From the NCBI GenBank assembly GCA_963771175.1, contig CAVYSY010000024.1:231227-295226 (forward strand): a stretch of DNA of 64,000 nucleotides, read 5' to 3'. This document shows, one piece after another, positions 3,921 to 32,425 of the stretch (position 1 is its first letter; each line of letters opens with the position of its first letter). Below the pieces are notes generated by a model that was not told the DNA's origin, made no database searches, and saw nothing but the letters and a program-made list of their open reading frames with translations. This stretch comes from an uncultured delta proteobacterium (GTDB lineage: Bacteria; Myxococcota; Myxococcia; Myxococcales; Myxococcaceae). Both the position numbers and the translations under genes were made by a program.

Positions 3921-4067
3921 GCATTCCCCCAAGGAGAGGCAATCACTGGACTGCCGGTTTCATTGTACAGTGACGCCTGACGGTTCCCTGGCGTGACAGG
4001 CATCCGCGTCACACGTTCAACAATGGACGCGTGGCGTGGCAGCCGACCGAGTGTCTACCATTGGACA

Positions 4068-6176: not shown

Positions 6177-6455
6177 TCGAGTCCTCCGGGGTGGGGGGGA
6201 CCGCGAATGCTACACGCCATCGGCCGCTTCAGGAGAGGCGTGGGGCCCGCTTTTCGTCGTCTCGGGACGGGAAGTCCGGCAGGCCACGGCCATCCACCCG
6301 TGGACCCGAGAGGGGCCATGGCCGTCCCCAAGGAGGGCACCCGGGCGGATTGCGGTCTGCCCGTGAATCGCGGCGGCGCTGGCTTCATCGCGCCGTTATG
6401 GCCATCCCCTTGAATTTACTTCTGAATCCCACCCAGTCCTGTAGAGAATGGCCAC

Positions 6456-8841
<2,386 letters not shown>

Positions 8842-12755: not shown

Positions 12756-12767
12756 GAGCGTCCGGCG

Positions 12768-15700
12768 ATGAAGCTTCACTTCGAGCCGAACCTCGACTAC
12801 CAGCTCCAGCGCCATCGAGGCGGTCTGCGACCTGTTCCGCGGCCAGGAGATCTGCCGCACCGAGTTCACCGTCACCCGCGAGCGCTCGGCGGACCTGCAG
12901 CTCCTGCCCGGCATGCGAGAGCGACCTCGGCATCGGCAACCGGCTCACACTGCTCGACGACGAGCTGCTCGAGAACCTCGAACGACATCCAGCTCCGCAA
13001 CGGCCTGCGCCCCGTCGGCAGACGCTCGCCTCCGGCGATTTCACCGTGGAGATGGAGACCGGCACCGGCAAGACCTACGTCTACCTGCGCACGATCTTCG
13101 AGCTGAACAAGCGCTACGGCTTCACCAAGTTCGTCATCGTGGTGCCGTCGGTGGCCATCAAGGAAGGCGTCTACAAGACGCTCCAGATCACCGAGGAGCA
13201 CTTCCGCGGCCTCTACGCCAACGCGCCCTTCGACTACTTCCTCTACGACTCGGCCAAGCTCGGCCAGGTGCGCAACTTCGCCACCAGCCCGCACATCCAG
13301 ATCATGGTGGTGACGGTCGGCGCCATCAACAAGAAGGACGTCAACAACCTCTACAAGGACAGCGAGAAGACCGGCGGCGAGAAGCCCATCGACCTGATCA
13401 AGGCCACGCGCCCCATCCTCATCGTGGACGAGCCGCAGAGCGTGGACGGCGGCCTCGAGGGGCGCGGCAAGGAGGCGCTCGGCGCGCATGAACCCGCTCT
13501 GCACGCTGCGCTACTCGGCCACGCACGTCGACAAGCACCACATGGTCTACCGGCTCGACGCGGTGGACGCCTACGAGCGCAAGCTGGTCAAGCAGATCGA
13601 GGTCGCCTCGGCCACCGTCGAGGGCGCCCACAACAAGCCCTACGTGCGGCTGGTCTCCGGTCGAGCAACAAGCGGCGGCGTCATCACGCGCGAAGGTCGA
13701 GCTGGACGTGCAGACGGCCGACGGCGTCCGGCGCCGGCGAGGTGACCGTCCAGGACGGCGACGACCTGGAGCAGACCACCGGCCGCGCCGATCTACGCCG
13801 ACTGCCGCATCGGCGAGATCCGCGTCGGGCAAGGGCAACGAGTTCCTGGAGCTGCGCGTGCCCGGCGGCGAGCAGTACCTGACGCCCGGCCAGGCCTGCG
13901 GCGACGTGGACGCCGCTGGCCGTGCAGCGGCAGATGATCCGCCGCACGATCAAGGAGCACCTCGACAAGGAGAAGCGCCTGCGCCCGCAGGGCATCAAGG
14001 TGCCTCAGCCTGTTCTTCATCGACGCGGTGGACCAGCTACCGGCAGTACGACGCGCGACGGCAACCCGGTGAAGGGCGACTACGCCCGCATCTTCGAGGA
14101 GGAGTACCGGCGCGCTGGCCAAGCACCCGGACTACCAGACGCTCTTCAAGGAGGTGGACCTGACGCGCGCCGCCGAGCGAGGTCCACGACGGCTACTTCT
14201 CCATCGACAAGAAGGGCGGCTGGACCGACACCGCCGAGAACAACCAGGCGAACCGCGACAACGCCGAGCGCGCCTACAACCTGATCATGAAGGACAAGGA
14301 GAAGCTGCTGAGCTTCGAGACGCCGCTCAAGTTCATCTTCTCCCACTCGGCGCTGCGCGAAGGCTGGGACAACCCGAACGTCTTCCAGATTTGCACCCTG
14401 CGCGACATGGGCACCGAGCGCGAGCGCCGCCAGACCATCGGCCGCGGCCTGCGTCTGTGCGTGAACCAGAAGGGCGAGCGCCTGCGCGGCTTCGAGATCA
14501 ACACGCTGACCGTCATCGCCACCGAGAGCTACGAGCAGTTCGCCGAGAACCTGCAGAAGGAGATCGAGGAGGACACCGGCATCCGCTTCGGCATCGTGGA
14601 AGAGCACCAGTTCGCCGCGATCGCCGTGACGGGACGCGGACGGCAGACCGACGCCGCTGGGCGTCGAGCAGTCGAAGGCGCTCTGGGAGCACCTGCAAGG
14701 CGCCGGGCTACATCGACGCCAAGGGCAAGGTGCAGGACTCGCTGCGCAAGGCGCTGAAGGACGGCACGCTGTCCGCTGCCGCCGAGCGTTCGAGGCCCAG
14801 CTCCAGCAGGATCGACGGAGATTCTCCGCAAGCTCGCCGGGCGGCTGGAGATCAAGAACGCCGACGAGCGCAAGCCGATTGCGCACCGCGGCAGGCCGTG
14901 CTGCACAGCGAGGAGTTCAAGGCGCTGTGGGATCGCATCAAGCACAAGACCACCTACCGCGTGCAGTTCGACAACGAGAAGCTGATTGCAGAGCTGCGTC
15001 ACGGCGCTCCGCGACGCGCCGCCGATCGCCAAGACCCGCGCTGCAATGGCGCAAGGCCGACCTCGCCATCGGCAAGGCGGGCGTGGAGGCGACGGAGACG
15101 CAGACGCTGCCGCGCCGGTGGTCCTCGACGAAGGCGACATCGAGCTGCCCGACCTGCTGACCGACCTGCAGGACCAGACCCAGCTCACCCGCCGCACCAT
15201 CTACCGCATCCTGACCGAGAGCGGCCGGCTCGACGACTTCAAGCGCAACCCGCAGCAGTTCATCGAGCTTGCGTGGCCGAGGCCATCAACCGCAGCAAGC
15301 GGCTCGCCCTGGTGGACGGCATCAAGTACCAGCGGCTCGGCGACGAGCACTACTACGCCCAGGAGCTGTTCGAGGAGGAGGAGCTGACCGGCTATCTCAA
15401 GAACATGCTGGCGGCGACGAAGTCGGTCTACGAGCACGTCGTCTACGACTCGGACGTCGAAGCGAACCTTCGCCGAGCAGCTGGAGAAGAACGAGGCGGT
15501 CAAGGTCTACGCCAAGCTCCCGGGCTGGTTCAAGGTGCCGACGCCGCTCGGACGCTACAACCCGGACTGGGCCGTGCTGGTCGAGAAGGACGAGGGCGAG
15601 CGCCTCTACTTCGTGGTCGAGACCAAGAGCAGCCTGTTCACGGACGACCTGCGCGACAAGGAAAGCGCGAAGATCGAATGCGGCAAGGCCCACTTCGCCA

Positions 15701-15783
15701 GCCTCGGAGTCAGCGAGCCGCCGCCCAAGTACACCGTCGCGCGGACGCTCGAGCAGGTCCTAAACGAGGTCGAGCCGACCTGA
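12768..15783 (+). CDS. res: Type III restriction endonuclease Res (many frameshifts)
   Basis: EMETGTGKT Walker A, DEPQ, LRYSATH, FSHSALREGWDNPN, QTIGRGLRL; C-terminal YNPDW...VVETK nuclease motif. Confidence 0.93.
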
Positions 15784-15793
15784 TACCACCCGG

Positions 15794-17223
15794 TCACTGG
15801 CTCGTCCCCGGAGGCTGCGTGCTCGCCAGCCATCCCCCGCCGAGCGCTTTGTAGAGGTTGACGAGGTTGGACAGGCGGGAGAGCTGCGCGTCGATGAGCG
15901 TCTGCTGGGCGTTGTAGAGGTCTCGCTGAGCCGACAACAGCGTGATGTAGCTGTCCACGCCCGCCCGGTAGCGCTGTTCGGACAAGCGGAAGCGCTGCTC
16001 CTCGGCCGCCACCCGCTCCGTCTGCGCCTTGAGCTGTTCCTCGAAGGAGGCGCGGGCGACGAGGGCATCCGCCACCTCGCGGAATGCCGTCTGGATGGAG
16101 GCCTCATAGCGGGCAATCTCGATGGACTTGGAGACCTCCGCCACCTCGAGGTTCGCCCGGAGCCGGCCGCCGGTGAAGATGGGCAGGCGAATCTGGGGCA
16201 CGAAGCTCCAGACGCCCGCACCGCCGGAGAAGAGCCCGACGAGCTCCGTGCTGGAGACGCCACCGGACCCCGTCAGAGTGATGGACGGGAAGAACGCGGC
16301 ACGCGCCGCCCCGATGTTCGCGTTGGCCGCCTTGAGCTGGTGCTCGGCCTGGAGGATGTCGGGCCTGCGCTGCAGCAGGTCCGACGGCAGTCCCGCGGGC
16401 AGGTCCGCGAGGAGCTTCTGGGTGGACAGGGGCCGCGGCGCGGGAAGCTCGGCGGGCAGGGGGCGGCCAATGAGGAGCACCAGGGCGTTCTCCGCCTGAG
16501 CGTACTGGCGCTTATAGAGTTCCAGGGTGAAACGGCTGGCGTGGACCTGGGTCTCCGCCGTGCGCAGGTCCAGTTCGGAAGCCCGGCCGAGCTCGTAGCT
16601 GCGCCGGGTGATGTCGAAGGAAGCCTGCACCGTCTCGAGTGTCTGGCGGGCGAGGGCCAACTGTTCGTCGAGCGCGCGCTGGGTGAGGTAGGCCCGGGCG
16701 ACCTCCGCCACGAGCGACAGGTGCGCGCTGCGCTGCGCCTCGCCCAGTGCGAGGTACTGCTCCAGTGCCTGGTTGTTGAGGCTGCGCACCCGGCCGAAGA
16801 AGTCGAGCTCGTAGGCCGTCACGCCCACGCCCACACTGTAGGCGTTGAGGGTCGTGGCCTCCCCCGTCGGGCTCTGGAAGGCGGGCATCCGCTGGATGGC
16901 GTCGCTGGCGGTGGCGTTGACCGTGGGGAAGAGGTCCGCGCGCTGGATGCGGTACTGCGCCCGGGCGCGCTCCACGTTCAGCGCGGCGATGCGCAGGCTG
17001 CGGTTGTTCTCGAGGGCCAGGGAGATCAGCTCCGCAGGCGCTCATCCCCGAAGACGTCCCGCCAGCCAATGTCGGCCGCGTGCACGCCCGTCTGCCCCTC
17101 GCCGCCCTCCCCTCCTGGAAACACGGAGACGACGGGTGCCTCGGGACGCTGGTACTTCGGCGCGAGCGTGCAGCTCGCCAGCAGGGCCGCGCTCGCGGCG
17201 GCCAGCAGAGAATGCCTAACCAT
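15794..17223 (-). CDS. RND efflux outer-membrane lipoprotein, OprM/NodT family (frameshift near 17035)
   Basis: Lipobox [35 protein letters not shown]. Confidence 0.93.
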
Positions 17224-20200
17224 GGACCGCACCTCCGGCGGTGGCAGGCGCCTGGGGAGCCGCGGTGGGCTCCCTCGAGAACCTGCGGAGAATGACGACG
17301 AAGAACAGCGGCACGAAGAAGACGGCCAGCACGGTGGCGGAGATCATGCCGCCGATCACGCCGGTGCCGATGGCGTTCTGGCTGCCCGAGCCGGCGCCGC
17401 TGGCGATGGCCAGCGGCAGCACGCCGAGGATGAAGGCGAGCGAGGTCATGATGATCGGGCGCAGGCGCATGCGGCACGGCTTCGAGCGCCGCGTCGAGCA
17501 GGCTCCTGCCCTGCTCGTACAGCTCCTTGGCGAACTCGACGATCAGGATGGCGTTCTTGGCCGACAGACCGATGGTGGTGAGCAGGCCGACCTGGAAGTA
17601 GACGTCGTTGCTGCAGGCCGCGCCATCAGCGCGGCCAGCAGCGCGCCGAGGACGCCGAGCGGCACCACCAGCATGACCGACGAACGGGATCGACCAGCTC
17701 TCGTAGAGCGCGGCCAGGCAGAGGAACACGACCAGCAGCGAGAGGGCGTAGAGCATCGGCGCCTGGGAGCCGGACAGCCGCTCCTCGTAGGACAGGCCGG
17801 TCCACTCGATAGCCGATGCCGGCGGCAGCTGCTGGACGAGCTCCTCCATCGCGCGCCATCGCCTCGCCGGAGCTGTTGCCCGGCGCGGCCTCGCCGAGGA
17901 TCTCGACCGAGGGGATGCCGTTGTAGCGCTCCAGCTTCGGCGAGCCGTAGGTCCACTCGCCGGTGGCGAAGGCCGAGAACGGCACCATCTCGCCCTGCGC
18001 GTTGCGCACGTACCAGCGGTCGAGGTCCTCCGGCTGCATGCGGAAGGGCGCATCGCGCCTGCATGTAGACCTTCTTCACGCGACCGCGGTCGATGAAGTC
18101 GTTGACGTAGGTGCCGCCCCAGGCCGAGGACAGGGTGGTGTTGATGTCCGCCAGCGACAGGCCCAGCGCCGCTCGCCTTCTCCTGGTCGATGTCGACGCT
18201 GGAACTGCGGCGTGTCGTCGAGGCCGTTGGGGCGCACCTTCGTCAGCGCCGGGTTCTGCGCGGCCAGCCCGAGGAGCTGGTTGCGCGCCGCGCATCAGCG
18301 CCTCATGGCCGAGTCCGCCGCGGTCCTGCAGGTACACGTCGAAGCCCGTGGCGTTGCCCAGCTCCAGGACCGCCGGCGGCACGAAGGCGAAGACCATGCG
18401 CGTCCTTGAGCTGCGAAGAACACTGCCATCGCGCGGCCCGCCAGCGCCTTCGACGTTCTGCGCGGGCGGCTCGCGCTCGCTCCCAGTCCTTGAGCTGCAC
18501 GAAGGCCATGCCGGCGTTCTGGCCGCGGCCGCCGAAGCTGAAGCCGGCGATGGCCGAAGACCGAGCTCGACGGCGTCCTTCTCCTCGTCGAGGTAGTAGT
18601 CCGCACCTTCTCGAGGACCGCTGGTCGGTCCGCTCGCAGCGTGGCGCCGGCCGGCAGCTGCACCTGCGCGAAGATGCACGCCCTGGTCCTCGTCCGGCAG
18701 GAAGGCGGTCGGCAGGCGGACGAACAGCAGGCCCATGCCGCCGACGATCGCCACGTAGACGACCATGGAGCGGCCCGTGCGTCCCGAGCAGCACGCCGCA
18801 CGACGCCGCTGCGTAGCGTGTCAGCGCCGCGCTCGAAGGTGCGGTTGAACCAGCCGAAGAAGCCGCGCCGTTCTCGTGGCCGTGGCCGTGCGGCCATCGG
18901 CTTGAGCAGGTGGCGCAGAGCGCCGGGGTGAGCGATCAGCGCCACCAGCACCGACAGCACCATGGCCGACGACGATGGTGATGGAGAACTGCCGGTAGAT
19001 GACGCCGGCCGAGCCGCCGAAGAAGGCCATCGGCACGAACACCGCCGACAGCACCAGGCCGATGCCGATCAGCGCGCCGGTGATCTGCTCCATCGACTTG
19101 CGCGTCGCCTCCTTCGGCGACAGGCCCTCCTCGCTCATCACGCGCTCGACGTTCTCGACCACCACGATGGCGTCGTCCACCAGCAGGCCGATGGCCAGCA
19201 CCATGGCGAACATGGTCAGCGTGTTGATGCTGATAGCCGAACACCGCCAGCACGCCGAAGGTGCCGAGCAGCACCACCGGCACCGCGATGGTCGGGATCA
19301 GCGTGGCGCGGAAGTTCTGCAGGAACAGGAACATCACCAGGAAGACGAGCACGATGGCCTCGATCAGCGTCTTGACCACCTCCTCGATGGACGAGGCGCA
19401 CGAAGGGCGTGGTGTCGTAGGGATAGATCACCTTGCACGCCCGGCCGGGAAGAACGTCTGCGAGCTCGCTCGACGCTGTCGCGCACCGCCGGCCACGGTG
19501 TCCAGCGCGTTGGCGCCGGTCGGCCAGCTTGATGGCCATCGCCGCGGCCGGCTTGCCGTTGTAGCGCGCTGGCTGATGTCGTAGTTCTCGCCGCCGAGCT
19601 CGACGCGGGCGACGTCGCGCAGCGCACCTGCGAGCCGTCCGGCGTTGACGCGCAGCAGGATGTTGCCGAACTGCTCCGGCGTCTGCAGGCGGCTCTGCGC
19701 CGTGACGGTGGCGTTGAGCTGCTGGCCCGGCGATCGCCGGCAGGCCGCCGAGCTGGCCGGCGGAGACCTGCACGTTCTGCGCCTGGATGGCGCCGCTCGA
19801 CGTCCGCCGGCGTCAGCTGGTAGTTCATGAGCTTGTCCGGGTCGAGCCAGATGCGCATGGCGTACTGGCGCGCCGAAGAGCTGGACGTCGCCCACGCCGC
19901 GGCACGCGGCTGAGCGGGTCCTGCACGTTGGCGGCCATGTAGTCGCCGAGGTCGTAGCCGGTCATGCTGCCGTCGTCGGAGATGAAGCCGACGATCATCA
20001 GGAAGTTGTTGCACGGCCTTGTCGACGCGCACGCCCTGCTGCTGCACCTCCTGCGGCAGCAGCGGCGTGGCCAGCTGCAGCTTGTTCTGCACCTGCACCT
20101 GGGCGATGTCCGGGTTGGTGCCGGCGTCGAAGGTCAGCGTGATGGTCACGTGCCGTCCGAGTCGCTCGCCGAGTCCATGTAGCGCAGGTCGTCGAGCCCG

Positions 20201-20411
20201 TTGAGCTGCTGCTCGATGACCTGCGTGACGGTGTTCTCGACCGTCTCGGCCGAGGCGCCGGGGTAGATGGCGCTGATGCTCACGCGCGGCGGCGCGATGC
20301 TCGGGTACTGCGCGATCGGGCAGGCTCAGGATCGACAGCGCGCCCGGCCAGCATGATGACGATGGCGATGACCCACGCGAAGATCGGCCGGTCGATGAAG
20401 AATCTGGCCAC
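17216..20411 (-). CDS. RND efflux inner-membrane transporter, AcrB/MexB family (many frameshifts)
   Basis: [15 protein letters not shown]-terminus, [43 protein letters not shown]. Confidence 0.93.
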
Positions 20412-20444
20412 GGAAGTTCTCGCTGATGCGGTGAGCGGATGGGC

Positions 20445-21679
20445 TCAGCGCGTGAATTGAGTGACGGGGGCACTCGCGGCGGCGGGCACGGCGCGCACCT
20501 CGCTGCCCGGCCGCACCTTCTGCAGGCCCTCGACGATGACACGGTCGCCCGCCGCCAGCCCCTCGGTGACGAGCCACTTGTCACCCACGCTCCGCGCCGC
20601 CGCGAGCGTGCGCAGCTCGACCTTGTTCCCCGCGCCGACGACGAGCGCCGTCGCCTCGCCCTTGGGGTCGCGCGTGACGGCCACCTGCGGCACGAGCAGC
20701 GCGTCCGGGTCCACGCCTTCCTCCAGCCGCGCGCGGACGAACATGCCCGGCAGCAGCCGCTGCTGGGGGTTCGGCACGAGCACCCGCAGGGTGATGGAGC
20801 CCGTGGACGGGTCCACCGTCACGTCGGAGAACTGCAGCGTGCCCGGCTCCGAGTACTCGGTGCCGTCCTCCAGGAGGAGCTTCACCTTCGCGTGCGTGGC
20901 GTCCGCGCGCTGAAGCCGCCCGCTCTCCAGTTCGCGTCGGAGCCGCAGCAACTCGGCGCTCGACTCGGAGACGTCCACGTAGAGCGGGTCGAGCTGCTGC
21001 ACGGTGGCCATGAGGGTGGCCTGGCCCTGCTGGACGTAGGCGCCCTCGGTCACCGTCGCGCGGCCGATGCGGCCCGACACGGGCGCAGTGACGTGGGTGT
21101 AGCCGAGGTTGATTTGCGCCGTCTGGACGGCGGCCTTCGCCGCGGCGACGTCCGCGAGGGATACCTTGTGCGCCGCGGTGACGTTCTCGTACTCCTGCTT
21201 GCTGATGGCCCGCTCCGCCAGCAGCTCCGTGTAGCGCTCCTCCTTGAGGCGGTGTCTGCTCCAGGTTCGCCTCGGCCCGCGCGAGCGTGGCCTTGGCGCT
21301 GTCGAGCGCCGCCTGGTAGGGCTGGGGATCGATCTCGAAGAGCACCTGCCCCTCCTTCGACGTCGCTGCCCTCGGTGAAGAGCCGCTTGAGCACGATGCC
21401 GTTGACGCGGGCGCGCACCTCGGCCACCCGGTACGCGGAAGTCCGGCCCGGCAGTTCCTTGGCGAGCGCCACGGGCGCCGCGGCCAGCTGCACCACCCCT
21501 ACCTCCACGGGACCCGAGGGACCCCGGCCAGTTGGAGCGCCCGGCTTGTCGCCACACGCGCCAAGAAGCAGGGCTCCGAGGGCGGCCACGCCCAAGCCCC
21601 TGACTCGCGGGGTGGGAAAAGGCCAGCGGGTACATGCCTGCTCGGCAGCTCTCTTCAGGACGGATTCTGTTTTCGCCAT
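20445..21679 (-). CDS. RND membrane-fusion protein, AcrA/MexA family (frameshifts near 21255-21350)
   Basis: Lipobox LGAC, ELPGRTSAYRVAEVRARVNG, APVSGRIGR, LLPGMFVRA. Confidence 0.92.
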
Positions 21680-21871: not shown

Positions 21872-22489
21872 ATGAGGAAGACACCAGCGGAGCTCTCACC
21901 GACCAAGCGTGCGCAGATTCTCAGTGGCGCGTCCGCGGTCTTCAGTGACCTGGGGTACGAGCGGGCGAGCGTCGATGCGATTGCCGCCCGCGCCGGGGTC
22001 TCCAAGGCGACGATCTACAACCACTTCGAGGACAAGAAGGCGCTGTTCGTCGCATGCCTCTCCGAGGAGACGCGCGCGGTGGAGGAGCGTCTGCGCGAGG
22101 TGCTGGACACGCCGTCGGGCGATCTGGAGCGTGACCTCCAGCTGATTGGGGAGGCCTTGATGCGCCTGCTCCTCTCACCTGCCATCCTCAAGCGGTACCG
22201 CATCTTCGCGGCACAAGTGGACCGCTTTCCGGAGCTCGGGGTGGCGCTGTTCGAGCAGGGTACGAGTGCCACGCAACTGCGGATGACCCGCTACCTGGAG
22301 CGAGCCAGCGCGACGGGGGCCTTGAGACTGGAGGACCCCGCCCAGGCCGCCCTGGACTTCCTGTCCCTCTGCCATGGCGACATCCCCATCCGGGCACAGC
22401 TCGGGGTCCTCAAGAGCCTCACGGACGAACAGATTCGAGCCAGGGTCGCTCACGCCGTGCGTGTCTTCCTCTGTAGCTACCGCCCGTGA
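21872..22489 (+). CDS. TetR/AcrR-family regulator of the divergent efflux operon
   Basis: HTH IAARAGVSKATIYNHFEDKKALF; divergent from the RND operon. Confidence 0.93.
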   Translation: MRKTPAELSPTKRAQILSGASAVFSDLGYERASVDAIAARAGVSKATIYNHFEDKKALFVACLSEETRAVEERLREVLDTPSGDLERDLQLIGEALMRLLLSPAILKRYRIFAAQVDRFPELGVALFEQGTSATQLRMTRYLERASATGALRLEDPAQAALDFLSLCHGDIPIRAQLGVLKSLTDEQIRARVAHAVRVFLCSYRP

Positions 22490-22496
22490 GGGCAGC

Positions 22497-22670
22497 CACC
22501 ACCTCTTCCAACCCCTGCGCTACCAGGTGGCCACCGCCGGCCTGAGCCCCTCGGACATCGCGATGCCCATCCGCTCGCAGTTCGCTGGGCTGCCCGACGT
22601 GTCCGTACAATGGGGCGCGCAGAGAGCGTGAGCCTGGAGAAACGCAGGGTCGGCGCCGAGGACGGCGCGC
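22497..22670 (+). pseudogene. Fragment of a type II NADH dehydrogenase (Ndh) gene
   Basis: HHLFQPLRYQVATAGLSPSDIAMPIRS resembles the NDH-2 N-terminal motif HLFQPLLYQVATAGLS; no start codon, truncated. Confidence 0.7.
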
Positions 22671-22870
22671 GGGTGGTCGGCGAGAGCGCCTGGGGCCGAA
22701 GGGGGACATCGTGAGCCGCTACACGACACTCCCCTGGGAGTCCGTCTGGGCGGAGGTGGCGAAGCTGAAGGGGGAGCTCCGGTCCCCGTCGACGTCGCCG
22801 GCAGGAGGCGCGCTGCCCTCGGACGAAGCCCCGTAGCCACAGTCGAGCCACAGTCCGGATCAGCAAAAGA

Positions 22871-22907
22871 AAAAAGCCCCCGAGTCACTTGGACTCGGAG
22901 GCTCTTT
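22871..22907 (-). terminator. Intrinsic terminator following the displaced tRNA-Leu 3' fragment
   Basis: AAAAAGCCcCCGAGTC-loop-GACTCGGaGGCTcTTT; T-run on minus strand. Confidence 0.7.
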
Positions 22908-22936
22908 CGGGTTGCCCAGGGCGGGATTCGAACCCG
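22897..22936 (-). repeat. att direct repeat, distal copy (tRNA-Leu 3' end plus downstream bases)
   Basis: GGAGGCTCTTTCGGGTTGCCCAGGGCGGGATTCGAACCCG identical to 32328-32367 (40 bp). Confidence 0.95.
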
Positions 22937-23240
22937 GTACGGGGGGATGGAAAACCTCAAGCAGGACGCGCCCTTACCCGCCATCCCCTTGATTTACTCG
23001 GGTTCGTCGTCCCGCACTATCCCACCCCGCGCCACCTCATCCCACCTCGTCCCCCCTGAACCCGCGCTGGAGGGGCACATACGGGGCACATGGGCGCGTC
23101 ACACCACCGCCTCGGCGATCGTTGGTCGCGCCAACTCGTGCTCACACGCCTGACCTAAAGTTCAGAGGCCTCCGCCCGAAGCGGGCAGGTTCGGGGAAAC
23201 CCCGCTGAGGCTTCCCGCTATGGGTGTAGGAGGAGCCCAC

Positions 23241-26200
23241 ATGCTGAAGTCCAAAAAGAAGCTTTTCGAGGAGACCCGGAAGGGTTTGCAGGCGCTTCAG
23301 GAAGAGAAGGTCTACGACCAAGCCCTCGCAGAGAACCCCGAATCCTGGAACTTGCGTCTTCGAGCTGCAGAGCCTGCTCGCCCTGGGCCACAGGGAGGAA
23401 GCGCTCCCACTCTTCCAGCAGGCTCTGGCGCTCCATCCGGAGGCGGATGACAGCGCCGCAGCGGCAGCTGCCCGCCATGACCTAGCACATGCGCTCGCGG
23501 ATGAGCAGGAGAACGTCTTCGCGCTCAACACCGCCAGGCAACTCTACAGCCGTGCGCTGGAATCATCGGCCCGCCAACGCGCCCCGCTCCGCTCCGCGGA
23601 GACCGAAAGCTCTCTCGCCGTCTGCCTGCGCCGGATGGCTCACCTTGTCTCTCGGGAGGATCGCGCGCCGCTCTTCGAGGAGATCGAACGACGCTACAGA
23701 AGTGCCATATGGAGGCTGGAGGGCTGCGGTCAGCTGGGCCTTCAACAACTCTCCGAGGTCCACCTGAACCTCGCCAACTTCCTGGGAACCGAACGTGGGG
23801 AGGTTGAGCGTGCCATCCGCGAGTATGACCGAGCGGAGGAATGCGCCCGGCGTGCCAAAGAGTTCTTCGGTCCCTCCCGCAACTCCATTCCCCTGCGGGC
23901 CCGGCTCTCCTCCGCGAGCCTGCTGCGCGTGCGTGGACGAAAGCAAGACCTCAAGCAGGCCGAGCGATTGGCGAAGGAGGTCATCCAAGCGGGGGACCCG
24001 CAGTACCAGGGGCTCGCGCGCATGGAGTTCGCCGAGGTCATCCTCGCAGGGGATGCTCCCGACCGGGCGACCCGCGCCCGCGCTTTGCTGGAGCAGGTGC
24101 GATGGAACGTGCTGGACCAGTTCGAGCACCTGAGGCACTTGGCAGCCCTGCTCAGGCGTTCCGATGGACGTCAGGCCGCCATCGAGCTGCTGAGCGGATT
24201 CATCGAGAAGGCCATCCACCATCGGGCCCAGGCCACCATCTCCGACTTCGAGGCGGACGCGGCTTCGGTCGATCTGCAGGATGCCGCGGAGTTGGTGGCG
24301 CGCATCCTCGCGCAGGACCAACAGGATGCGCTGCACGCCTTTCTGGCACTCGAGAATACGAGTGGCTTCCGCTTCGCCGAGAACCTCTCCTCGTATGTGC
24401 GAAGGCCCGAGGAGCCGTTGGCCAAGGCTCTTTACGACGAGCTGAAGAAGCACATGGGACAGACGTACATGCTCGACACCTTCGCGCAGTCGATGAAGCG
24501 CCAGGCCCCCGATGAGCAGCGGGAGTACCTCGACAACATCATTCCCCAGTTGAAGCAGTCTGCCGAGGACAAGGACTCCGGCTTCATCCTGCCCAGCTGC
24601 ATCGCCGCCCGAAAGGCGCCCGTCCCCTCAGAATACTTCGACACGTTGGTCGAAAAGGGGCGCCAGCAAGTGCTCCGGCTGCGCTACTCGCTCGCCCGGG
24701 CGGACACGACCTTCGCGGAGGTCCAGCACATCCTCAACCAGAACCTTGGCTCCGAGGAGCTGACCGACGTGCTCCGCCAGCATCCAAGCCATGTCCTGGT
24801 ACGAATCTTCGTGCAAGAGCTGGAGCTGCTAGCCATCGCCGTGTGGCTCGAAGGTGGCGAGCTGAAGGCACGGAGCACCACCTGCCCCATTCGTCCGGAG
24901 GTCTTTAGCCTCCTCCGACAGGCTGCGGAGCACAGTACGACCTTCACGAAGTCCGAGCCCCTCTCCCAGATGCTGCGGGAGTTCGATTTCTCGGCGGCGT
25001 TACCCTCGGGGACATGGGCGCGTGCCGTCCTGCTGCCCTCGCACGTGTCGACGTTCCTCCCGCTTGCCGCACTGGGCCCCCCGGGCAACCGGCTCATCGA
25101 TCGGTTCGAGTCCATCATCTGGCTCCCCAGCCTCTTTCCGCTACGCACCCGCCCGGCCCCCACTCCCCCTCGAAAGGGAGAATGGGTGGTCATCCCCGGG
25201 GGGACGCACTTCCACCCTATCGCCTTCCAATCCCTGCGCCCCAATGAACGCTGCCTGCTGGGTGAGGAGGCAACGCTCGAGGCCATCCATGGCGCCGTCT
25301 CGGAGGCCCGTACCCTCAGCATCTACACCCACGGAGAGCACAATCCTGGAGAGTGGCCCCAGCTCCAGCTCCAGGGCGGGACGCTCGACTTCAGCAAGCT
25401 GGGGGCAGAGTCACTGCACGGCATGGAGCGGGTGGAGATCTGGGCGTGTCAGTCGGGTGCCAACCTTCCCCATCGATCCCCTGACACGGCCCGCGAACGA
25501 GGGCTACGGACTGGACCACATTCTGCTGACGAGCGGGGTTCGGACCGCCATCGGGACACAGTGGTCCGTGCCAGACCTGGTGACCGCGATCGTGGCACGG
25601 GAATACCGGCGGCGGCTCGCCGCGGGCGATGAGCCTGCTCGTGCCCTGACTGGCGCCCAGCGGCATTGGCTCGAGCAGAACCTGCCGCTGCTGCTCCAGT
25701 CCCTGCGGACGCTTCCCGTCAACGAGGCCATTGCCTCGTTCGCTGGAACCTTGGGTCTCCCCCCGGGGCAGGACATCTCGCGGCCCTGTGTTGGGAATGC
25801 TGGGTCCCGTCTCTGACCAGATGAGCGAGCAGGAGGTGAGCGAGTTGGAAGCGCGGCTGGCCTGCCCGGTCTCGTGGGCAGGGATCCGCTTCGTGGGCCT
25901 GCCGGAGTGGACGCCCGAGAAGGAATGGACACCGGTCTCCGACCGGGCGCTCACCGACGAGGAGCGGACACTGATGGAGCAACTCTTGGCCCAGGAGCCA
26001 CCGTCACCGGCCTGCTTCAATGAGTTGCAGGACCAATGGCTCGAACGCGAGGTTCCCTCCACTCCCGGTGAGTCTCCCTCACCCGAACGAGCCCTGGCCG
26101 TGGCGCGGTTGCTGCGCGATCGCCTGAACTCCTCTCAGTTCGACAATCTGCTCGCCGCGCTGGCCTGGGTCCACGAGGCGCTAGCGGTTCCAGGCATCTC

Positions 26201-28719
26201 GCCCCACGAGCGGGAGCAACTGTCCGTAGAGGCCGCGCATCTCTGGCTCGATGTCGCCCAGCGAGGAGATGTCCGGCCCATGCTCCCCCACACGGTGCCC
26301 TTGGCCCGGTCGGAGGGACTTCTGGCCAGCGTCTCTCCGGGCTCCGCGGACCTGTCCGCCGACGCTAAGGCGGCGCGAGCCCGGTTGAACTTCCTCCAGC
26401 ATGTGAACCGCAGGGAGAAGGAAGAGCCCGATGACGCTGGTTCAGGCCGCGATCGAGGAAGTCCTCCCGGCTTTGACCCAGGTCACCCCGGGTACATTCG
26501 AAGCCCTCCGAGTCGCAACGACCGCGGCCGAGCTGATCGCTCTGGGTTCCCCGAAGGTGCGTACGCGACACGCGAGCAGCATCGACGCGGTACGCAAGCT
26601 GGCCCCAGAGTCATTGCCTCACCGAGAGGCCTTGGCGGCCGTCTACCGCCTGCGAGGTGTGCTCGAGCGCCTTGGCTGTGAGCCGTTGACCGTCGGGGAA
26701 GCCATGGCTTTCCTGCCTCCGAGGGAGCTCGTGGCGGTCGTCAATCACAAGGCACATCAAGAAGGGGCGCGTCCGGGCGCGGGCATGCTGCCTCGGGCAT
26801 CCAACGGGGCACTCAACCGGATGGAGGGGGCCCTCTGGGGATACCCAAGCGATGATCGCTCTCACCTGGTGCGGATGACAGGCACGCTGGGACCGGCCTA
26901 CCGGTGGATGCTCAACGGGTACCTCGCGGGCCATGTCCGCGCCCAGCCAGAGGACGTGGTTCACCTCCTGGCCTGCTTGCAGTACTCCTGCGACCTGCGC
27001 CTGACCGTGCTCCATCGGCTCGCGCGGCTGCCAGAGGCGCTGAAGCAGGACACCCTCCCGCCTCTGATGAAGTACCTGTGGGAGCTGCTGAGGATGCGGC
27101 GCCTCCTCCACACCGCCCTGGCGGATGCGGCCCTGTTTCCTGGGGTGGACTCCGCCCGTCAGAAGCTACGTCCCCACCGCCTCGATCCTTACGCCCTGTC
27201 GTCCCAGGAGCTGACACAGGGGCTCCAGGGGCACACGGATCTGACGGCATGGAGCCTCGGCGAGGTGTGTGACACGCTCCGCAAGGAGGGCTCGCGATTG
27301 GCGCACACCGCTGCCTTCGAGGCCACCTGCCTCTCGGCCTGGATCGAGGCGGAGCATCGCCAAGAGCTGGGCGCGGCTCCTAGAGACTCGATGAGCAGGG
27401 CCGAAAGGTCATGGCGTCCAGGAGTTTCCCGGACTGACGAACGTCATCGAGCCGGGACGCGACCTGGACAAGAACGAGAAGACTCTCAGGGACATCGCCG
27501 ACGGAACGGTGTCCTCGGGCTGGTGGTCGAGCCCACGGGGGAATTGATGGTCATGGCGTGCTGGAACGATGGCCACATACGCGGCCAGCGGACCTTCCGG
27601 TTGGAGACAGGCCTGGTCCAGGGCGGGCTCATGGGGGCGCTGCACCTGTGCGACGAGGACTTCGCCTCCCGCCGGGGCTCCTCCTCGGCCATGCGCCGGA
27701 ACGCCTGGAGCATGGTGGAGACACAGTTGGCGCCGGTGCTTGAGTCGCTGCTCCGCGTGGCACAGGTCCGAAAGCCCCTGCGCTGGAGTGTCCTGGCTCC
27801 GGGGGCCCTGCGCGAGCTGCCGCTACTCGGCTTGAGGGTCGAGGGGAAGCTCCTCGCGCACCAGGTCGAAGCGCTCGTCCACATGCCCTCGATTCGCTTC
27901 TCCCTCCCGCCGATGGAAACCGAGGCCCAGGACTTCACGGCCTGCCTGCTTGCTCGAGACCGGGAGAAAGGCACCACGTGGTTTGGCGAGGCGGCGGTGG
28001 AGACGCTGCGGCGCATTCAGCCTCCACACCTGGTGGCCGACCCCCAGGAGACTCAGCGGCAGTCACGTGGTGGAGGTGGGAACCCTGGAATCCCATGCCT
28101 CACGAATTCGCACCCTGCGGCTCTATGGCGTCGGCAAGGCGGCCTCGCTCAACGACACCCTGGCGCTTCTGCAATTGGAGGGAAGAAGAGTACTCCGCGA
28201 CCGGAATACCCACGGGATGATCATGCCTCGCTGCAGGGTGGTTGAACTCTGGGCGTGCACTGCCGGGAGCGCGGGATCGCTGAACTCCCTGCGCAATGAG
28301 GCAGACCGCATCCCCGGGCTCGCCGCGAGCTTCCTCGCCAATGGCGCGTTGGCGGTCATCGACCTGGCATGGCCGGTCCACGATATCGTCAAGGCCCTTG
28401 TGTGCGAGCAGTACGGGCTGATGCGACGGCGAATTGGCCACCGCCCCGAGGCGCTGAAACAAGCGCTCTGCATGACGGACGCAGCCCTGCAGGAGCTTCG
28501 GCGTCAGGCGGGACAGCGGACAGTGCGCCAAGTGCTCGAGCAGCTTGATCACCTGCGGCGATCCGCAGCGGCGATCGTGTTCCACATCGACCCAGGCCAG
28601 CTCGTACCGTTCGCCGATGGAGCGGACTCTCCCCTGGTGGGGAACTGTCCGGGGAGCAACTGGTGGAAGAGCTGTGCCAGCCGGTACATCTCGCGGCTTT
28701 CCGTTGGTGGGGGGTGTAG
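23241..28719 (+). CDS. Giant TPR + tandem CHAT (caspase-like) protease, about 1800 aa if one gene; frameshifted, possibly two genes split near 26431
   Basis: RBS AGGAG; TPR-like LLALGHREEALPLFQQALALHPE; CHAT1: FLPLAAL..RLIDRF..WLPS, YTHG, EIWACQSG, TQWSVPD, PVSWAGIRFVG; CHAT2: PGALRELPLLGL, ELWACTAG, LAWPVHD, PVHLAAFRWWGV-stop. Confidence 0.8.
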
Positions 28720-28722
28720 CGC

Positions 28723-29729
28723 ATGGGCAAGCTGGATACGCCCATCACCGATTGGTCCCAGGCAGGACGTGCCTCGCTTGTGCAGGAGCACCGTGAAGCT
28801 CCTCGGGCTCCTGCTCCGCCATAGCCTCGCACAGGTGGCAAAGCCCTACGGCGAGCAGAACCTGCTCGACGCGTTCCGGTTCGAAACCCTTGATGACGCC
28901 GTTGACTGGTGCCTCGAACGGTTCGCCACCGGCACGCTGGCTCCAAGACAGCTCAGTCCGTCTTCACGCAGCTGGCGACTCTTCACCCAGGCGAGTTTCT
29001 GGCTCTCCCAGCGGGAGGGGACCGCGGGCTTCCGGCGGAAGATGCAGGAGTTGGAGGCGGCATGCCGACGGGACTCGGCGCGCGCCGAGTCCCCTGAGCC
29101 CGGGGAAGAGCCCGTTCCCGACTTGGATGTGCAACGGCTGAAGGAGAGGCTCGCTCGCACCTTGTCAGAGCTGCGCGACTCGCACCTGTCCGGATCTCGT
29201 CACCTGGTGGCTCCGGGCCACGGAGGCACTGCGCTCCCAATGGTTCGAGTTGCCAGTCCCGAGCTTGCCCACGAATCCCGGACGAAGAAGGATCGAAGTG
29301 TGCGCGCGCATGATGCGCTGTTCCGCTTCGCGTGCCTCTTCCGCAAGCTGATTCTCCACGAGAAGGACACCGCCCCCTCACAGCTCGCGGTAAGTGAGTG
29401 GCTGTTCAGTCCATGCCGGAACGCGCCTCCCTACCGGCGAACGGAGGAGGAGATCGCAGCGGCACTGCCTCTGAAGGTTCCCAAGGAAAAAAGAGCGATC
29501 CAACGCCTGCGGCGTGAGGGGGTGAGTCGCGCTCATCCACCAGTTGATCAGCGCCCTCGACTTGCCGACGGACACAGTGGAGGCGGTTGCACTCATGGAG
29601 TGGCAGCTCATGCGCGTGTCCGTGACCAGGACCACCCTCACTGCATTTGCCCTGGATGAAGGGGCAAGCCCTGAACTGGAACGCCGCATCGAAGCGCTTC
29701 CATCCATCGCAAGTATGAGGCGCCCATGA
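28723..29729 (+). CDS. Putative divergent ECF-sigma-like / HTH DNA-binding protein (frameshifted)
   Basis: Starts 3 bp after the CHAT stop; region-2-like LDDAVDWCLERF...RSWRLF...FWLSQR; region-4-like EEEIAAAL...AIQRLRREG; function inferred. Confidence 0.5.
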
Positions 29730-30335
29730 GCCGCAAGCCCGTAGACTTCGTGACGCTCGATGCACTCGTCCAAGGCGAGGATGATCCGGAAACCCCCGAG
29801 GCATGGCGGGCCCTGCTCACAACGCCGGACGCGGCGGCTCGGTGGGCCCAGGCCGTTACGCGGCGCGCGACCATCGACCGGTTCGCCATGGAAGTACTCA
29901 ACCATCCCTGGCTCGCGTCAGCCTTGAGCAGGCTCCGGCGCAAGACACGCTCCCCCTCGGATGTGGCGCTGAGAGTCCATTTAGAGCCCCCCCCACTCAC
30001 AGCGATCCTGGGACCCACCTCCAGGGCTCCTGAGTTGCTGACCGCCCCTGCCTGGGGCGACATCGAGTCGATCTCCGTCAAGGTGGGGCTCACCCTCGAA
30101 ATACACCCCTCCCAAGTCCCCGGCGAGAATGTTCGGGTGTTCTATCAGTCGAGAACCTCCCAGGGTTGGATGCCCGGGTAGACGCTGGAAGTTGGAGCCA
30201 GGTGAAAGCCCAGTGCTCTTGATGGCGGTGGAGGGAGCAGACACGGCCGACACGCTGGACTCGGCTCTGTCGAAATCCCCCCGTTCCGCAGGGGTTGTCC
30301 TCTTCGAACTCGCAGAAGAAGCGCCAGAGGATTGA
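29726..30335 (+). CDS. Putative anti-sigma-like protein / protease substrate (frameshift near 30178)
   Basis: ATGA overlap with upstream gene; N-terminus TLDALVQGEDDPE..WRALLTTP resembles an anti-sigma helical domain lacking Zn ligands; beta-rich C-terminus. Confidence 0.5.
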
Positions 30336-30612
30336 GCCGCAGGCTCAGGCCACATAGCAAATGGTCCTGTGATCCGCGGGTCGCTTCCGCGTTATGCCAG
30401 GGCCTTCTGATTACGAATCGGGGCTGGGCAGGGGCAGCCCAGGGCTCTTCCCTCTGAAGGTGGCCCGTTCTGGCCGCCTCTGGCACGTCCCAAGTGGGGG
30501 GGAACCGTGGGTTCCCCACCCCACCACGCCTGCGGACTGGCAGGAGGGTCGCTCCAGCGAGTGCACCTCGCCCACCAAGGAGTACATCCCGGCGACCAAG
30601 TTCTGCGGCAGG

Positions 30613-32100
30613 TGTTACCGAGCACGCCGGATGAGGGAGAAGTGGGCCCGGGTGAGCAGACAGAATGATGGAGAGGCCCCCGGGCATGGCCAGGATTCCA
30701 TCAGCAAGCGTGGCGAGGGAGGAGAGAGCCCCAGGGTTGTCCGTGCCTGTCCGCCCCTGTCGGTCCGTGTCAACGCCCAGGAGCACGGGTAGAGCGGGTG
30801 CGCGAGGAGGGCGGAGCAGCATGGCAACGAGCAGGGGCAGGCCCGCGGTGGACAAGGCCCACAGCCCCTGGGCTCCGCGACAAGGCGAACATGGAGCAGA
30901 AGGCAGAAACCGGGGGAGTCCTCCGCATGAGAGGGCGGAGCGATGTGTCGCCGCCCACCACCGATGAGGCCCGTCCGCGCACGTGTCCGCGGTGCGGCCA
31001 GCCGGCCTACGAGGGGGGCGAGGTGTGGATACACGGGCATGGAGTGATACAGCGGCGGCAGCGAGGGCCCGAGGCTCCCAGCAAGGTGGCGGTGAAACGG
31101 GAGGTGGCCTGTCGTCGCTACCGCTGCAAGGCGTGTACGGACCGTGCTGCCGGCGTCCGCACTGGCCAGCAAGCACTTCTCGGGAGCGGCCATGGCGCTG
31201 GCGCTCTGGAGGGCTATGCGGCTGGAGCGCGGCCCAGGTACGAGTCGTGGTGGGTGGACGGATGCTATCGGGTGGAAGGCCCCGGGGATGGCGGACGGTG
31301 GCGCGCTGGGCCCGGCAGGTGGCAGACGGGACGTTGTGGGCGTCGTTGGAGTCGCGGGCCAAGCGTGCACCCAGGCAGGTGGCGGCACGTGCCACACAGG
31401 CCTTGTGTGGCTGGGCACCGCCCTGGGCACGGACAGCCGGGCGACCCCACCAAGCGTTCGCCGGAGCCTGCCATGTGAATTGATGGGCACCCAAGCGCCA
31501 GTAGCGGCCTGCAACCGCCCACCGGGTTGGGGCTGCGCATATGGCGCTCGAATCCGGCCTGCCGACGCATGCCCGCGCTCCTCAGCCCGCGTCGGGCAGC
31601 GAGGCTGGAAGGGACAGGTCTGCCCCGCGACTGGCTTCGCCGCGGATTCCGGCCAGCTCGGGCACTCGCCGCAGCGGATGCGTGCACCGCTGGCCTCCAT
31701 TTCCACCCCTCCGCTCCGTTGGCCTCCACCGAAGTTTCTGGAAGGCCGCTCCCCCGTCGTGGAGCAGACTTGTAGGTCAATGAACCCCCCTGGTCCCGTG
31801 CCGGTGCTCGACCACCCCGGAATCGGTGCTCGACCCGTCCCGGTGCACGCATCCGCTGCCGCGCACGCTCGGGACAGCGTCCACTCCGGATGGTCTGGAT
31901 GGACTCCGCGAGCGGCGCCCGACTCCCGTCACCGTAGCTCCCGTGCCATCCCCCAGGAGAGTCGGCCGCCCCCCCCCTGGCATCCCATGGGCCACCCCTC
32001 CCCGGACCCCTCCCCATCTCCCAGTGTGGCGCTGGCACCACCTGCGAAAGGCCATCAGCAAGCGTGCTCACATCCCCATCAACAAGCCTGCGCGGTAACA
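30613..32100. mobile_element. Non-autonomous TGT...ACA transposon (DUF6431/Mu-like ends)
   Basis: Terminal IRs TGTTACCG, 28/38 identical by manual alignment; subterminal repeats CCATCAGCAAGCGTG at 30698 and 32052, variant at 32076. Confidence 0.8.
30891..31483 (+). pseudogene. DUF6431-like zinc-ribbon/HTH transposon protein (frameshifted)
   Basis: CPRCG...HGHG...RRYRCKAC..TVLP...HFS..AMALAL...WRTVARW pattern across frames. Confidence 0.6.
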
Positions 32101-32276
32101 ACCTTCGCCAGCCACCTCGCCATGCGCGGGGTGCCGCTCAAGGCCGTCCAGGAGCTGATGGGGCACGCCACCATCGACATGACGATGCGCTATGCGCACC
32201 TCAGCCCGAACGTGAAGAAGGACGCGGTGCGGGCCCTGGACGTCGTGCGCCCGAGGGGCACATTGGGGGCACATAG
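32101..32276 (+). pseudogene. C-terminal remnant of a tyrosine recombinase (island integrase)
   Basis: TFASHLAMRGVPLKAVQELMGHATIDMTMRYAHLS with catalytic His and Tyr; begins exactly at the transposon right end. Confidence 0.9.
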
Positions 32277-32301
32277 ACCAGGAGGGCGTCGCCCAGAAAT
32301 G

Positions 32302-32338
32302 AAAAAGCCCCCAAGTCTCAAGGACTTGGAGGCTCTTT
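32302..32338 (-). terminator. Intrinsic terminator downstream of tRNA-Leu
   Basis: AAAAAGCCcCCAAGTC-loop-GACTTGGaGGCTcTTT. Confidence 0.7.
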
Positions 32339-32367
32339 CGGGTTGCCCAGGGCGGGATTCGAACCCG
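32328..32367 (-). repeat. att direct repeat, tRNA-proximal copy
   Basis: Identical to 22897-22936. Confidence 0.95.
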
Positions 32368-32425
32368 CACACCTTTCGGCGCCACCCCCTCAAGATGGTG
32401 TGTCTACCAGTTCCACCACCTGGGC
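32344..32425 (-). tRNA. tRNA-Leu (anticodon GAG), CCA not encoded
   Basis: GCCCAGG acceptor, D-loop GGAACTGGTAGAC, anticodon arm CCATC-TTGAGGG-GGTGG, long variable arm, GGTTCGAATCC; follows secG as leuU does in other bacteria. Confidence 0.96.

Follow-up and report, generated by a model that had tools for sequence, protein, structure and literature searches.

A CRISPR-independent TPR-CHAT protease operon with a putative sigma/anti-sigma-like switch, linked to viperin in its relatives, in a myxococcal tRNA-Leu island

Introduction

To our knowledge, protease-gated sigma/anti-sigma switches are known in bacterial defense in three forms only: Craspase and CalpL/T/S, both tied to CRISPR, and the membrane protein DdvA. 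Here we analyze an operon of three genes (the trio) at positions 23241-30335 (+ strand) of a 64,000-nucleotide stretch (the window) of contig CAVYSY010000024.1, from an uncultured bacterium of the Myxococcaceae (assembly GCA_963771175.1). The genes encode a TPR-CHAT protease (gene 1), a divergent sigma-like protein (gene 2), and a small anti-sigma-like binder (gene 3). We regard it as reasonably probable, though well short of certain, that the trio is a CRISPR-independent, autoregulated, protease-gated sigma/anti-sigma-like switch for antiviral defense, with a presumed sigma activity and a presumed cleavage step.

Craspase (PMC10028731) is a type III-E CRISPR system of the TPR-CHAT protein Csx29, Csx30, and CASP-sigma, with promoter motifs inside the locus; the trio likewise sets a TPR-CHAT protease beside a sigma-type factor and the protein that binds and holds it, and on the trio side we propose that cleavage likewise relieves inhibition and that the cognate promoter motifs likewise lie within the locus. 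CASP-sigma is described there as an unmistakable extracytoplasmic function (ECF) sigma factor (HHpred 100%), whereas gene 2 matches no Pfam sigma model. Unlike Craspase, the trio has no Cas7-11, CRISPR RNA (crRNA), or array by open reading frame (ORF) and repeat scans of the window, and its protease, of about 1820 aa, carries a further CHAT domain that is dead. Gene 3, at about 200 aa with an Ig-like domain, also differs from Csx30, which is much larger, and most relatives of the trio have viperin as an output gene.

DdvA of Myxococcus xanthus is described (PMC11506125) as a single transmembrane protein with a periplasmic TPR-CHAT region and a zinc-binding anti-sigma domain, for which self-cleavage and then RseP proteolysis are proposed. 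DdvA-DdvS resembles the trio in coupling TPR-CHAT to an anti-sigma/ECF sigma pair that controls defense genes, and in belonging to the Myxococcota, the phylum of M. xanthus. It differs in that the trio's protease, binder, and factor are three genes, proposed to act in the cytoplasm; in that the N-terminus of gene 3 has no Cys/His zinc motif; and in that DdvA-DdvS is described there as regulating CBASS (cyclic-oligonucleotide-based antiphage signaling) and CRISPR, whereas the apparent target of the trio is viperin. [quoted passage not shown] Judged from its sequence, the trio sets itself apart by being CRISPR-independent, cytoplasmic, and divided among three genes, with a dead second CHAT domain, a sigma-like protein invisible to profiles, and a viperin output.

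Results

The trio appears in the window as six long open frames that tile 23248-30335, all of which are pieces of the three genes by tblastn with intact homologues. Gene 1 runs from ATG 23241, with the ribosome-binding site GGAGGAG ahead of it, to TAG 28717-28719 (5479 nt); after a gap of 3 bp, gene 2 runs from ATG 28723 to TGA 29727-29729 (1007 nt); and gene 3 (610 nt) overlaps it by ATGA at 29726-29729 and stops at TGA 30333-30335. With frame breaks allowed for, the products have about 1820, 334, and 202 aa. The original prediction, made from the sequence alone, gave these coordinates, sizes, and junctions correctly; it was also right that single-base frameshifts interrupt the genes, but it spoke of a few, where we count at least 11 across 7.1 kb. 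At least six lie in gene 1 (near 23367, 25470, 25800, 26420, 28043, and 28643), at least four in gene 2 (28792, ~29178, ~29270, and ~29527), and one in gene 3 (near 30173). The breaks at ~29178 and ~29270 are a compensating pair that shifts the most conserved motif of the family, RTCxDLVxWWL, to another frame, and this hidden frame of the window gene reads RTCPDLVTWWL; here and at the N-terminus of gene 1 the frames were read by eye.

Gene 1 (23241-28719, +) aligns over its whole length with an intact 1876-aa homologue, P0007, at 33-45% identity through five frame changes (tblastn), which places a TPR/helical region, an active CHAT domain (CHAT1), a helical middle, and a degenerate CHAT domain (CHAT2). 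P0007 matches Pfam CHAT (PF12770) in 2 stretches (81.6 bits, E 8.9e-23, cut-off 24) and several TPR models. The broken pieces of the window gene reach only 13 bits against the CHAT profile (E 0.069), and scans of the window frame pieces against Pfam, PADLOC, and NCBIfam gave nothing beyond marginal TPR and CHAT matches; in PDB sequences (phmmer) P0007 found only a weak TPR-CHAT match, 7zoq_A (E 0.41). The CHAT1 motifs at 25324-25458 (+), YTHGEH (His codon CAC, 25330-25332) and IWACQSG (Cys codon TGT, 25447-25449), follow the patterns Y-[AT]-H-G and L/I-W-A-C-[QE]-[ST]-G in 7/7 aligned sequences, six intact proteins and the window pieces; the catalytic residues first proposed, His 25330 and Cys 25447, were placed to the codon. 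CHAT2 (28124-28267, +) instead reads YGVGKA and LWACTAG, and in the same seven-sequence alignment its His is replaced by Val or Ala in every sequence and its Cys by Ala in four. The His-Cys dyad is present in CHAT1 and missing from CHAT2. By its residues CHAT1 is catalytically competent, and CHAT2 is a conserved dead copy, presumably with a regulatory or scaffolding role. The TPR-CHAT-helical-CHAT layout of the original prediction is confirmed, but not two active domains: because CHAT2 lacks the catalytic His in 7/7 and the Cys in 4/7, its "tandem CHAT" is one live and one dead domain.

Gene 2 (28723-29729, +), placed by homologue comparison and a homologue model, encodes an all-helical, two-lobed, sigma-like protein; the window copy is 47% identical to homologue P0010 and keeps 24 of 30 family-invariant columns. 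The AlphaFold model of homologue P0008 (predicted local distance difference test, pLDDT, 88.7) is all-helical with two lobes, which a disordered linker (residues 111-130) connects. Among the structure matches of the N-terminal lobe, ECF sigma-2 domains predominate, and sigma-4 domains appear among those of the next lobe, weakly, as no Z exceeds 4.4. Aligned by hhalign to 19 ECF sigmas of one genome, a 74-sequence gene 2 family gave a colinear match of 127 columns (score 27.1, P 0.0038, probability 8.8%) while the reversed control scored 10.5 and 30 column shuffles reached 16.7 at best; with the lobes aligned separately, P was 0.044 and 0.03 for the cognate pairings and 0.26 and 0.49 for the crossed ones. 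No Pfam sigma model matched the window gene 2 pieces, neither the gene 2 nor the gene 3 model found a PDB match with Foldseek at E<=0.001, and the gene 2 alignment profile gave one meaningless match in PDB sequences (E 8.6). The structure matches and the hhalign comparisons are each weak, but they agree in pointing toward a possible sigma-2/sigma-4-like fold for gene 2. The region-2-like and region-4-like segments of the original prediction thus find weak fold matches, but no Pfam sigma profile, either in the window pieces or in 16 relatives.

A separate set of proteins of ~190-225 aa (P0119-P0157) aligns to the gene 2 profile over positions ~126-310 only (E 1e-11 to 1e-3) and may be a stand-alone form of its second lobe. 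That these ~200-aa proteins, which match the C-terminal two-thirds of the profile, are ordinary ECF sigmas was rejected, as a Pfam sigma domain was found in 0 of 26 scanned; the 26 matched no Pfam family at all.

Gene 3 (29726-30335, +) encodes four N-terminal helices, the anti-sigma-like binder, followed by a C-terminal Ig-like beta-sandwich, and the window copy keeps 27 of 34 family-invariant columns. The stretch after the helical domain is conserved (invariant E81, A82, L93, and G94) and modeled at low confidence (pLDDT ~55). Complex prediction, with alignments, on one cognate gene 2/gene 3 pair, from locus L006, gave an ipSAE of 0.89 in 3/3 runs, against 0.01 for the best of three controls; the ipSAE mark of the tool is reached by 116 of 157 solved complexes as against 2 of 215 mismatched pairs. 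Between runs, agreement in contacts was 77% or more, with a partner pLDDT of at least 56. In the predicted interface, gene 3 residues 3-67 face gene 2 residues 20-124 and 157-200, and because they contact both lobes the arrangement is a sigma/anti-sigma-like clamp. The model supports binding, with the helical domain of gene 3 predicted to be held between the lobes of gene 2 in the geometry of an anti-sigma domain, and agrees with the earlier idea that gene 3 is anti-sigma-like in its N-terminus.

Going by the source names of its relatives, the module is a rare one of the Myxococcota, the phylum of the window organism. Gene 2 has 16 relatives among 5.8 billion clusters and 126 representatives at E<=0.001 in an exhaustive profile search, and its family occurs in 8 of 401 sampled genomes of the phylum (4 of 154 genera). 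Loci were gathered with the 16-sequence gene 2 alignment. All nine genome loci, two in genome G004 (L005 and L006; proteins named as from Archangium gephyra) and seven from other Myxococcota-type genomes, carry genes 1, 2, and 3 in that order and tightly packed, and gene 1 of L005 is a single intact frame of 1876 aa. Nine further loci come from metagenomes, one of them only a distant gene 2 relative; among the eight true family members, gene 1 lies upstream in 6/6 with that flank and gene 3 downstream in 7/7. Protease and binder are separate genes in all loci. The three genes are co-conserved in other genomes, as the original interpretation required.

Individual loci vary in other ways. L041 (7-11545) has two tandem gene 1-like frames, the second with the TPR-CHAT1 half only. 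Gene 1 of L006 (6968-12600, - strand), in the one-contig genome G004, is in two overlapping frames that switch near residue 1293, either a real frameshift or a split gene. A Sorangium four-gene locus is followed downstream (L038:12909-16944) by genes for an AAA_21 (AbiEii-like) ATPase and for a PLD-ResIII helicase and has an SNF2 helicase upstream, a neighborhood that looks like a defense island.

The trio is followed by prokaryotic viperin (pVip) in 9 of 15 informative non-window loci (tblastn). This radical-SAM gene begins at most ~60 nt after gene 3 in L037, L038, L039, L040, L042, and L043 and in the metagenome loci L068, L069, and L070, and it is full-length; three scanned copies match the PADLOC pVip model with E values between 1e-80 and 1e-86, and they score 265-274 bits against NCBIfam NF038283, whose cut-off is 180. 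Whereas the PADLOC models have pVip alone or with kinases, here it stands behind a protease, a sigma-like protein, and a binder, with its own private promoter motif. A B12-binding radical-SAM gene takes its place in L041, behind the same motif, and viperin is absent next to the trio in L005, L006, L065/L066, L071, and the window. The linkage of viperin to the trio is a new finding: a full-text search, with most subscription journals outside its coverage, found no literature linking viperin or pVip with CHAT, sigma, or anti-sigma proteins.

The viperin region shows further features. In one Sorangium locus (L040:10250-12620) the viperin gene is split by an insertion sequence (IS) element of the IS21 family (IstB and rve transposase). 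Viperin leaders (L037:9569-9640, L038:9614-9672, L042:5168-5230, and others) fold singly into a G+C-rich hairpin that lies after the CTAT box and before the ribosome-binding site, with stem sequences that differ by lineage; a consensus fold was unsupported (-0.56 kcal/mol, RNAalifold on a MAFFT alignment).

A promoter-like motif, GGGAAA(C/A)-N16-17-CTAT(C/G), spans the gene 3 stop region in every viperin-bearing locus; it was defined at these viperin sites first and then found ahead of gene 1. In the 252,247 nt of the window and 19 loci, GGGAAA(C/A)-N16-18-CTAT(C/G) has 19 sites on both strands searched, all on the module coding strand: 10 upstream of the downstream radical-SAM gene (10/10 such loci) and 9 directly upstream of gene 1 (9/10 loci with that DNA, window included). 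The window's single match, against 0.02 expected, is GGGAAAC-N17-CTATGG at 23194-23223 (+), followed by GGAGGAG and ATG 23241. The stricter pattern GGGGAAAM-N16-17-CTATS has one site in the whole window genome (9.8 Mb), ahead of gene 1; one in G004 (12.5 Mb), upstream of gene 1 of L006; exactly two per genome in three Sorangium genomes (12.4, 12.9, and 14.6 Mb), one at the promoter of gene 1 and one at that of viperin; and one in a Haliangiales genome (8.5 Mb), at the module promoter. In all six genomes it thus marks module sites only, and backwards-pattern controls gave 0 everywhere. The two promoters of one locus share the variant of the first box, C in L037-L040 and A in L043 and L069, among few independent lineages. 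In place of the motif, L005 (4960-5170) has five tandem copies of a ~41-nt unit containing GTGAAAC.

The two-box geometry of the motif and its position, 20-45 nt ahead of start codons, are those of a putative ECF-type promoter. No sigma-70 consensus promoter was found in 22400-30800 (0.4 expected), which fits because the promoter would be of ECF type. Since the motif occurs at the module only, the factor that reads it is arguably encoded by the module, and we infer that gene 2 is that factor. The private promoter motif is a new finding.

The frame breaks of the trio have a pronounced bias, with 9 of 11 being +1. A similar bias is seen in the AcrB-like efflux gene (17042-20447, - strand), which against its 91%-identical orthologue in relative G001 has 47 insertions and 7 deletions of lengths not divisible by three (non-3n), vs 0 non-3n indels in the PGK and GAPDH genes (33.9-36.2 kb) in the same comparison; on this evidence, assembly errors with an insertion bias are concentrated locally in the AcrB-like gene. 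Compared with three relatives, the glutaminyl-tRNA synthetase gene, which is essential, shows a 1-nt insertion at 8172, most likely an assembly error as well. We conclude that the signature of the contig, from a genome of 81.7% completeness, is patchy, insertion-biased sequencing error. Because the breaks of the trio show the same insertion bias as these nearby, obvious assembly errors, they are probably errors and not decay, and the trio is probably intact in the organism, with the noise introduced by the assembly. One metagenome contig bridges the break at 23367, the sole one of the 11 so bridged, and lacks the extra base.

Other genes of the window show related features. The OEP, HlyD, and TetR genes beside the AcrB-like gene have 0-4 such indels each. 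The insertion at 8172 separates the glutaminyl-tRNA synthetase (6426-8396) from its C-terminal GatB/YqeY domain (8077-8838), and a subtilase (Peptidase_S8) and its I9 propeptide (2630-3959, - strand) lie in separate overlapping frames, probably through another frame break.

The trio lies in an island of 9.4 kb at a tRNA-Leu gene. A direct repeat of 71 nt (22866-22936 and 32297-32367, 90% identical) holds the 3' end of tRNA-Leu(GAG) and its hairpin. The left, attL-like border (22866-22936), a copy of the tRNA 3' end with the downstream hairpin, came from a repeat search and is also found at the tRNA-Leu site of relative G001; the right, attR-like border (32297-32367), from the same kind of search, overlaps the 3' end of the integration target, tRNA-Leu with anticodon GAG (32344-32425, - strand; ARAGORN). 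Between the repeats lie the trio, an IS-like multicopy repeat of 1.5 kb (30613-32100; relative G008 has at least 4 copies, 84% identical), and next to it a C-terminal remnant of the tyrosine recombinase that served as island integrase (32101-32270, +; Phage_integrase in Pfam, E 6.5e-9, limited to positions 135-169 of the 172 in the profile), and nothing else; the trio is therefore the only substantial cargo, as originally claimed. The 1.5-kb repeat has no convincing Pfam family, the only match being DUF6431 (E 0.0015) on one G008 copy. Relative G001 matches the window in gene order on either side, at 91% identity (the efflux operon up to 22492; the tRNA, secG, tpiA, pgk, and gap from 32075) and carries a different insert of ~5.8 kb at the same site. 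The locus thus has the tRNA-derived direct repeats and the cargo variable among relatives of a tRNA-integrated island, with the integrase as a remnant and not a whole gene.

No array-like tandem repeat was found in the window, no Cas family matched among the 55 window ORFs scanned, and no cas genes were found among the ORFs scanned in the flanks of 7 related loci; the original statement that the window holds neither cas genes nor an array stands. Elsewhere around the island, the tRNA-Leu 3'-end repeat occurs three times in G001 (C1:4938086-4951111; L049, L055), near 4938086, 4943965, and 4951041, so that att-like repeats also flank the efflux operon, and the site resembles a hot spot at which islands are arranged in tandem. 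In the window, 12128-15780 (+), which lies upstream of the efflux operon, encodes a ResIII/DEAD helicase and a RE_endonuc domain, a restriction-like system with lower G+C at third codon positions and several frame changes.

Discussion

We propose that the trio works as follows. Gene 1 would be a large cytoplasmic TPR-CHAT protease with a competent CHAT1 and a dead CHAT2, and gene 2 a very divergent sigma-factor-like protein of two helical lobes, between which the N-terminal helices of gene 3 would sit, leaving the Ig-like C-terminus free and possibly docked to the protease. A phage-derived cue, sensed by the TPR/pseudo-CHAT scaffold, would activate CHAT1, which would cut gene 3, most plausibly in the conserved flexible segment after the helical domain (the E81-G94 stretch is a candidate). 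Gene 2, so freed, would join RNA polymerase and transcribe from the private promoters, which would drive the operon itself and, in most relatives, the adjoining viperin gene; the outcome would be positive feedback plus, where present, viperin expression. In this scheme we infer the sigma activity of gene 2 and its binding to polymerase, the cleavage of gene 3, and the sensing of the trigger by the TPR arrays. The original idea of a stand-alone protease-triggered switch is supported, as co-conservation and predicted binding hold and the fold signal, though weak, agrees. The fuller picture of an inducible bacterial viperin, in which the caspase-like TPR-CHAT protease, on sensing infection, destroys the small anti-sigma-like binder and so frees a private, highly divergent sigma-like factor whose only promoters in the genome are those of its own operon and of viperin, we put forward more tentatively, as a possibility that we rate slightly below even.

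Several observations weigh against the switch. Pfam sigma models match 0 of 16 members of the gene 2 family (E<=10) and 0 of 38 more distant relatives (E<=0.01), and NCBIfam and PADLOC return nothing for the homologues P0008 and P0010. The window has no viperin (tblastn), and none above the cut-off was found in its genome (81.7% complete), whose only motif site is the promoter of the operon itself, the sole recognizable target in this viperin-less copy; L005 has no motif ahead of gene 1. Among the loci, L038/L040, L042/L069, L037/L068, and L065/L066 are near-duplicates, and therefore the counts overstate independence. Finally, the frame breaks of the window copy, if real, would mean that this copy is dead.

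This last point leads to a rival explanation, that the trio has decayed in the window into a cluster of pseudogenes on an island itself degraded, with real mutations and nothing functional in the organism. Such decay would account for the density of breaks, for an integrase cut down to its C-terminus beside a multicopy repeat, for the missing effector gene after gene 3, and for the partial loss of family-invariant columns in genes 2 and 3. We nevertheless consider it unlikely, as the predominance of +1 breaks matches the insertion excess in the AcrB-like gene of the same contig and the insertion in the glutaminyl-tRNA synthetase gene, all pointing to sequencing error; the bridging contig lacks the extra base at 23367; and nothing is lost from the catalytic dyad, the start codons, the ribosome-binding site, or the promoter motif.

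The other rivals accept the module as real. Gene 2 might not be a sigma factor but some other helical activator that binds DNA, or else a substrate or adaptor of the protease, with gene 3 holding it and the motif serving as its operator and not as a promoter that it reads within RNA polymerase. The motif has the two-box geometry of an ECF promoter, with a 16-18 nt spacer and sites close ahead of start codons, the cognate lobe pairings in hhalign are better than the crossed ones, and the predicted complex has the partner gripped by both lobes in sigma/anti-sigma style, all of which makes this account improbable in our view. Still less probable, we think, is that the effector role falls to the protease, or to a toxic gene 2 product that it activates, with genes 2 and 3 a toxin- and inhibitor-like pair acting in the manner of abortive infection. 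It would suit the viperin-less copies (window, L005, L006, L065/L066, L071), which have no separate effector beside the trio, and CHAT proteases do activate effectors in other defense systems, as a preprint on a type III-B cascade describes; the gene 2 model, however, has no membrane or enzyme features, and a private motif ahead of viperin implies a transcriptional output.

If the protease-gated switch that we favor is right, the logic known from CRISPR-tied and membrane-bound systems would also operate stand-alone in the cytoplasm, with a TPR/pseudo-protease scaffold as sensor in place of a crRNA complex. The complete predicted regulon of the module would consist of just two promoters across genomes of 12-15 Mb, and such a private promoter/factor pair is a natural candidate for an orthogonal expression switch. 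The module would tie viperin, a defense enzyme common to animals, to regulated expression in bacteria. On the more tentative picture of an inducible viperin, it would be a bacterial counterpart of the infection-induced viperin of animals and a CRISPR-free relative of Craspase signaling, and gene 2 would found a new, unrecognized branch of sigma-70-like factors.

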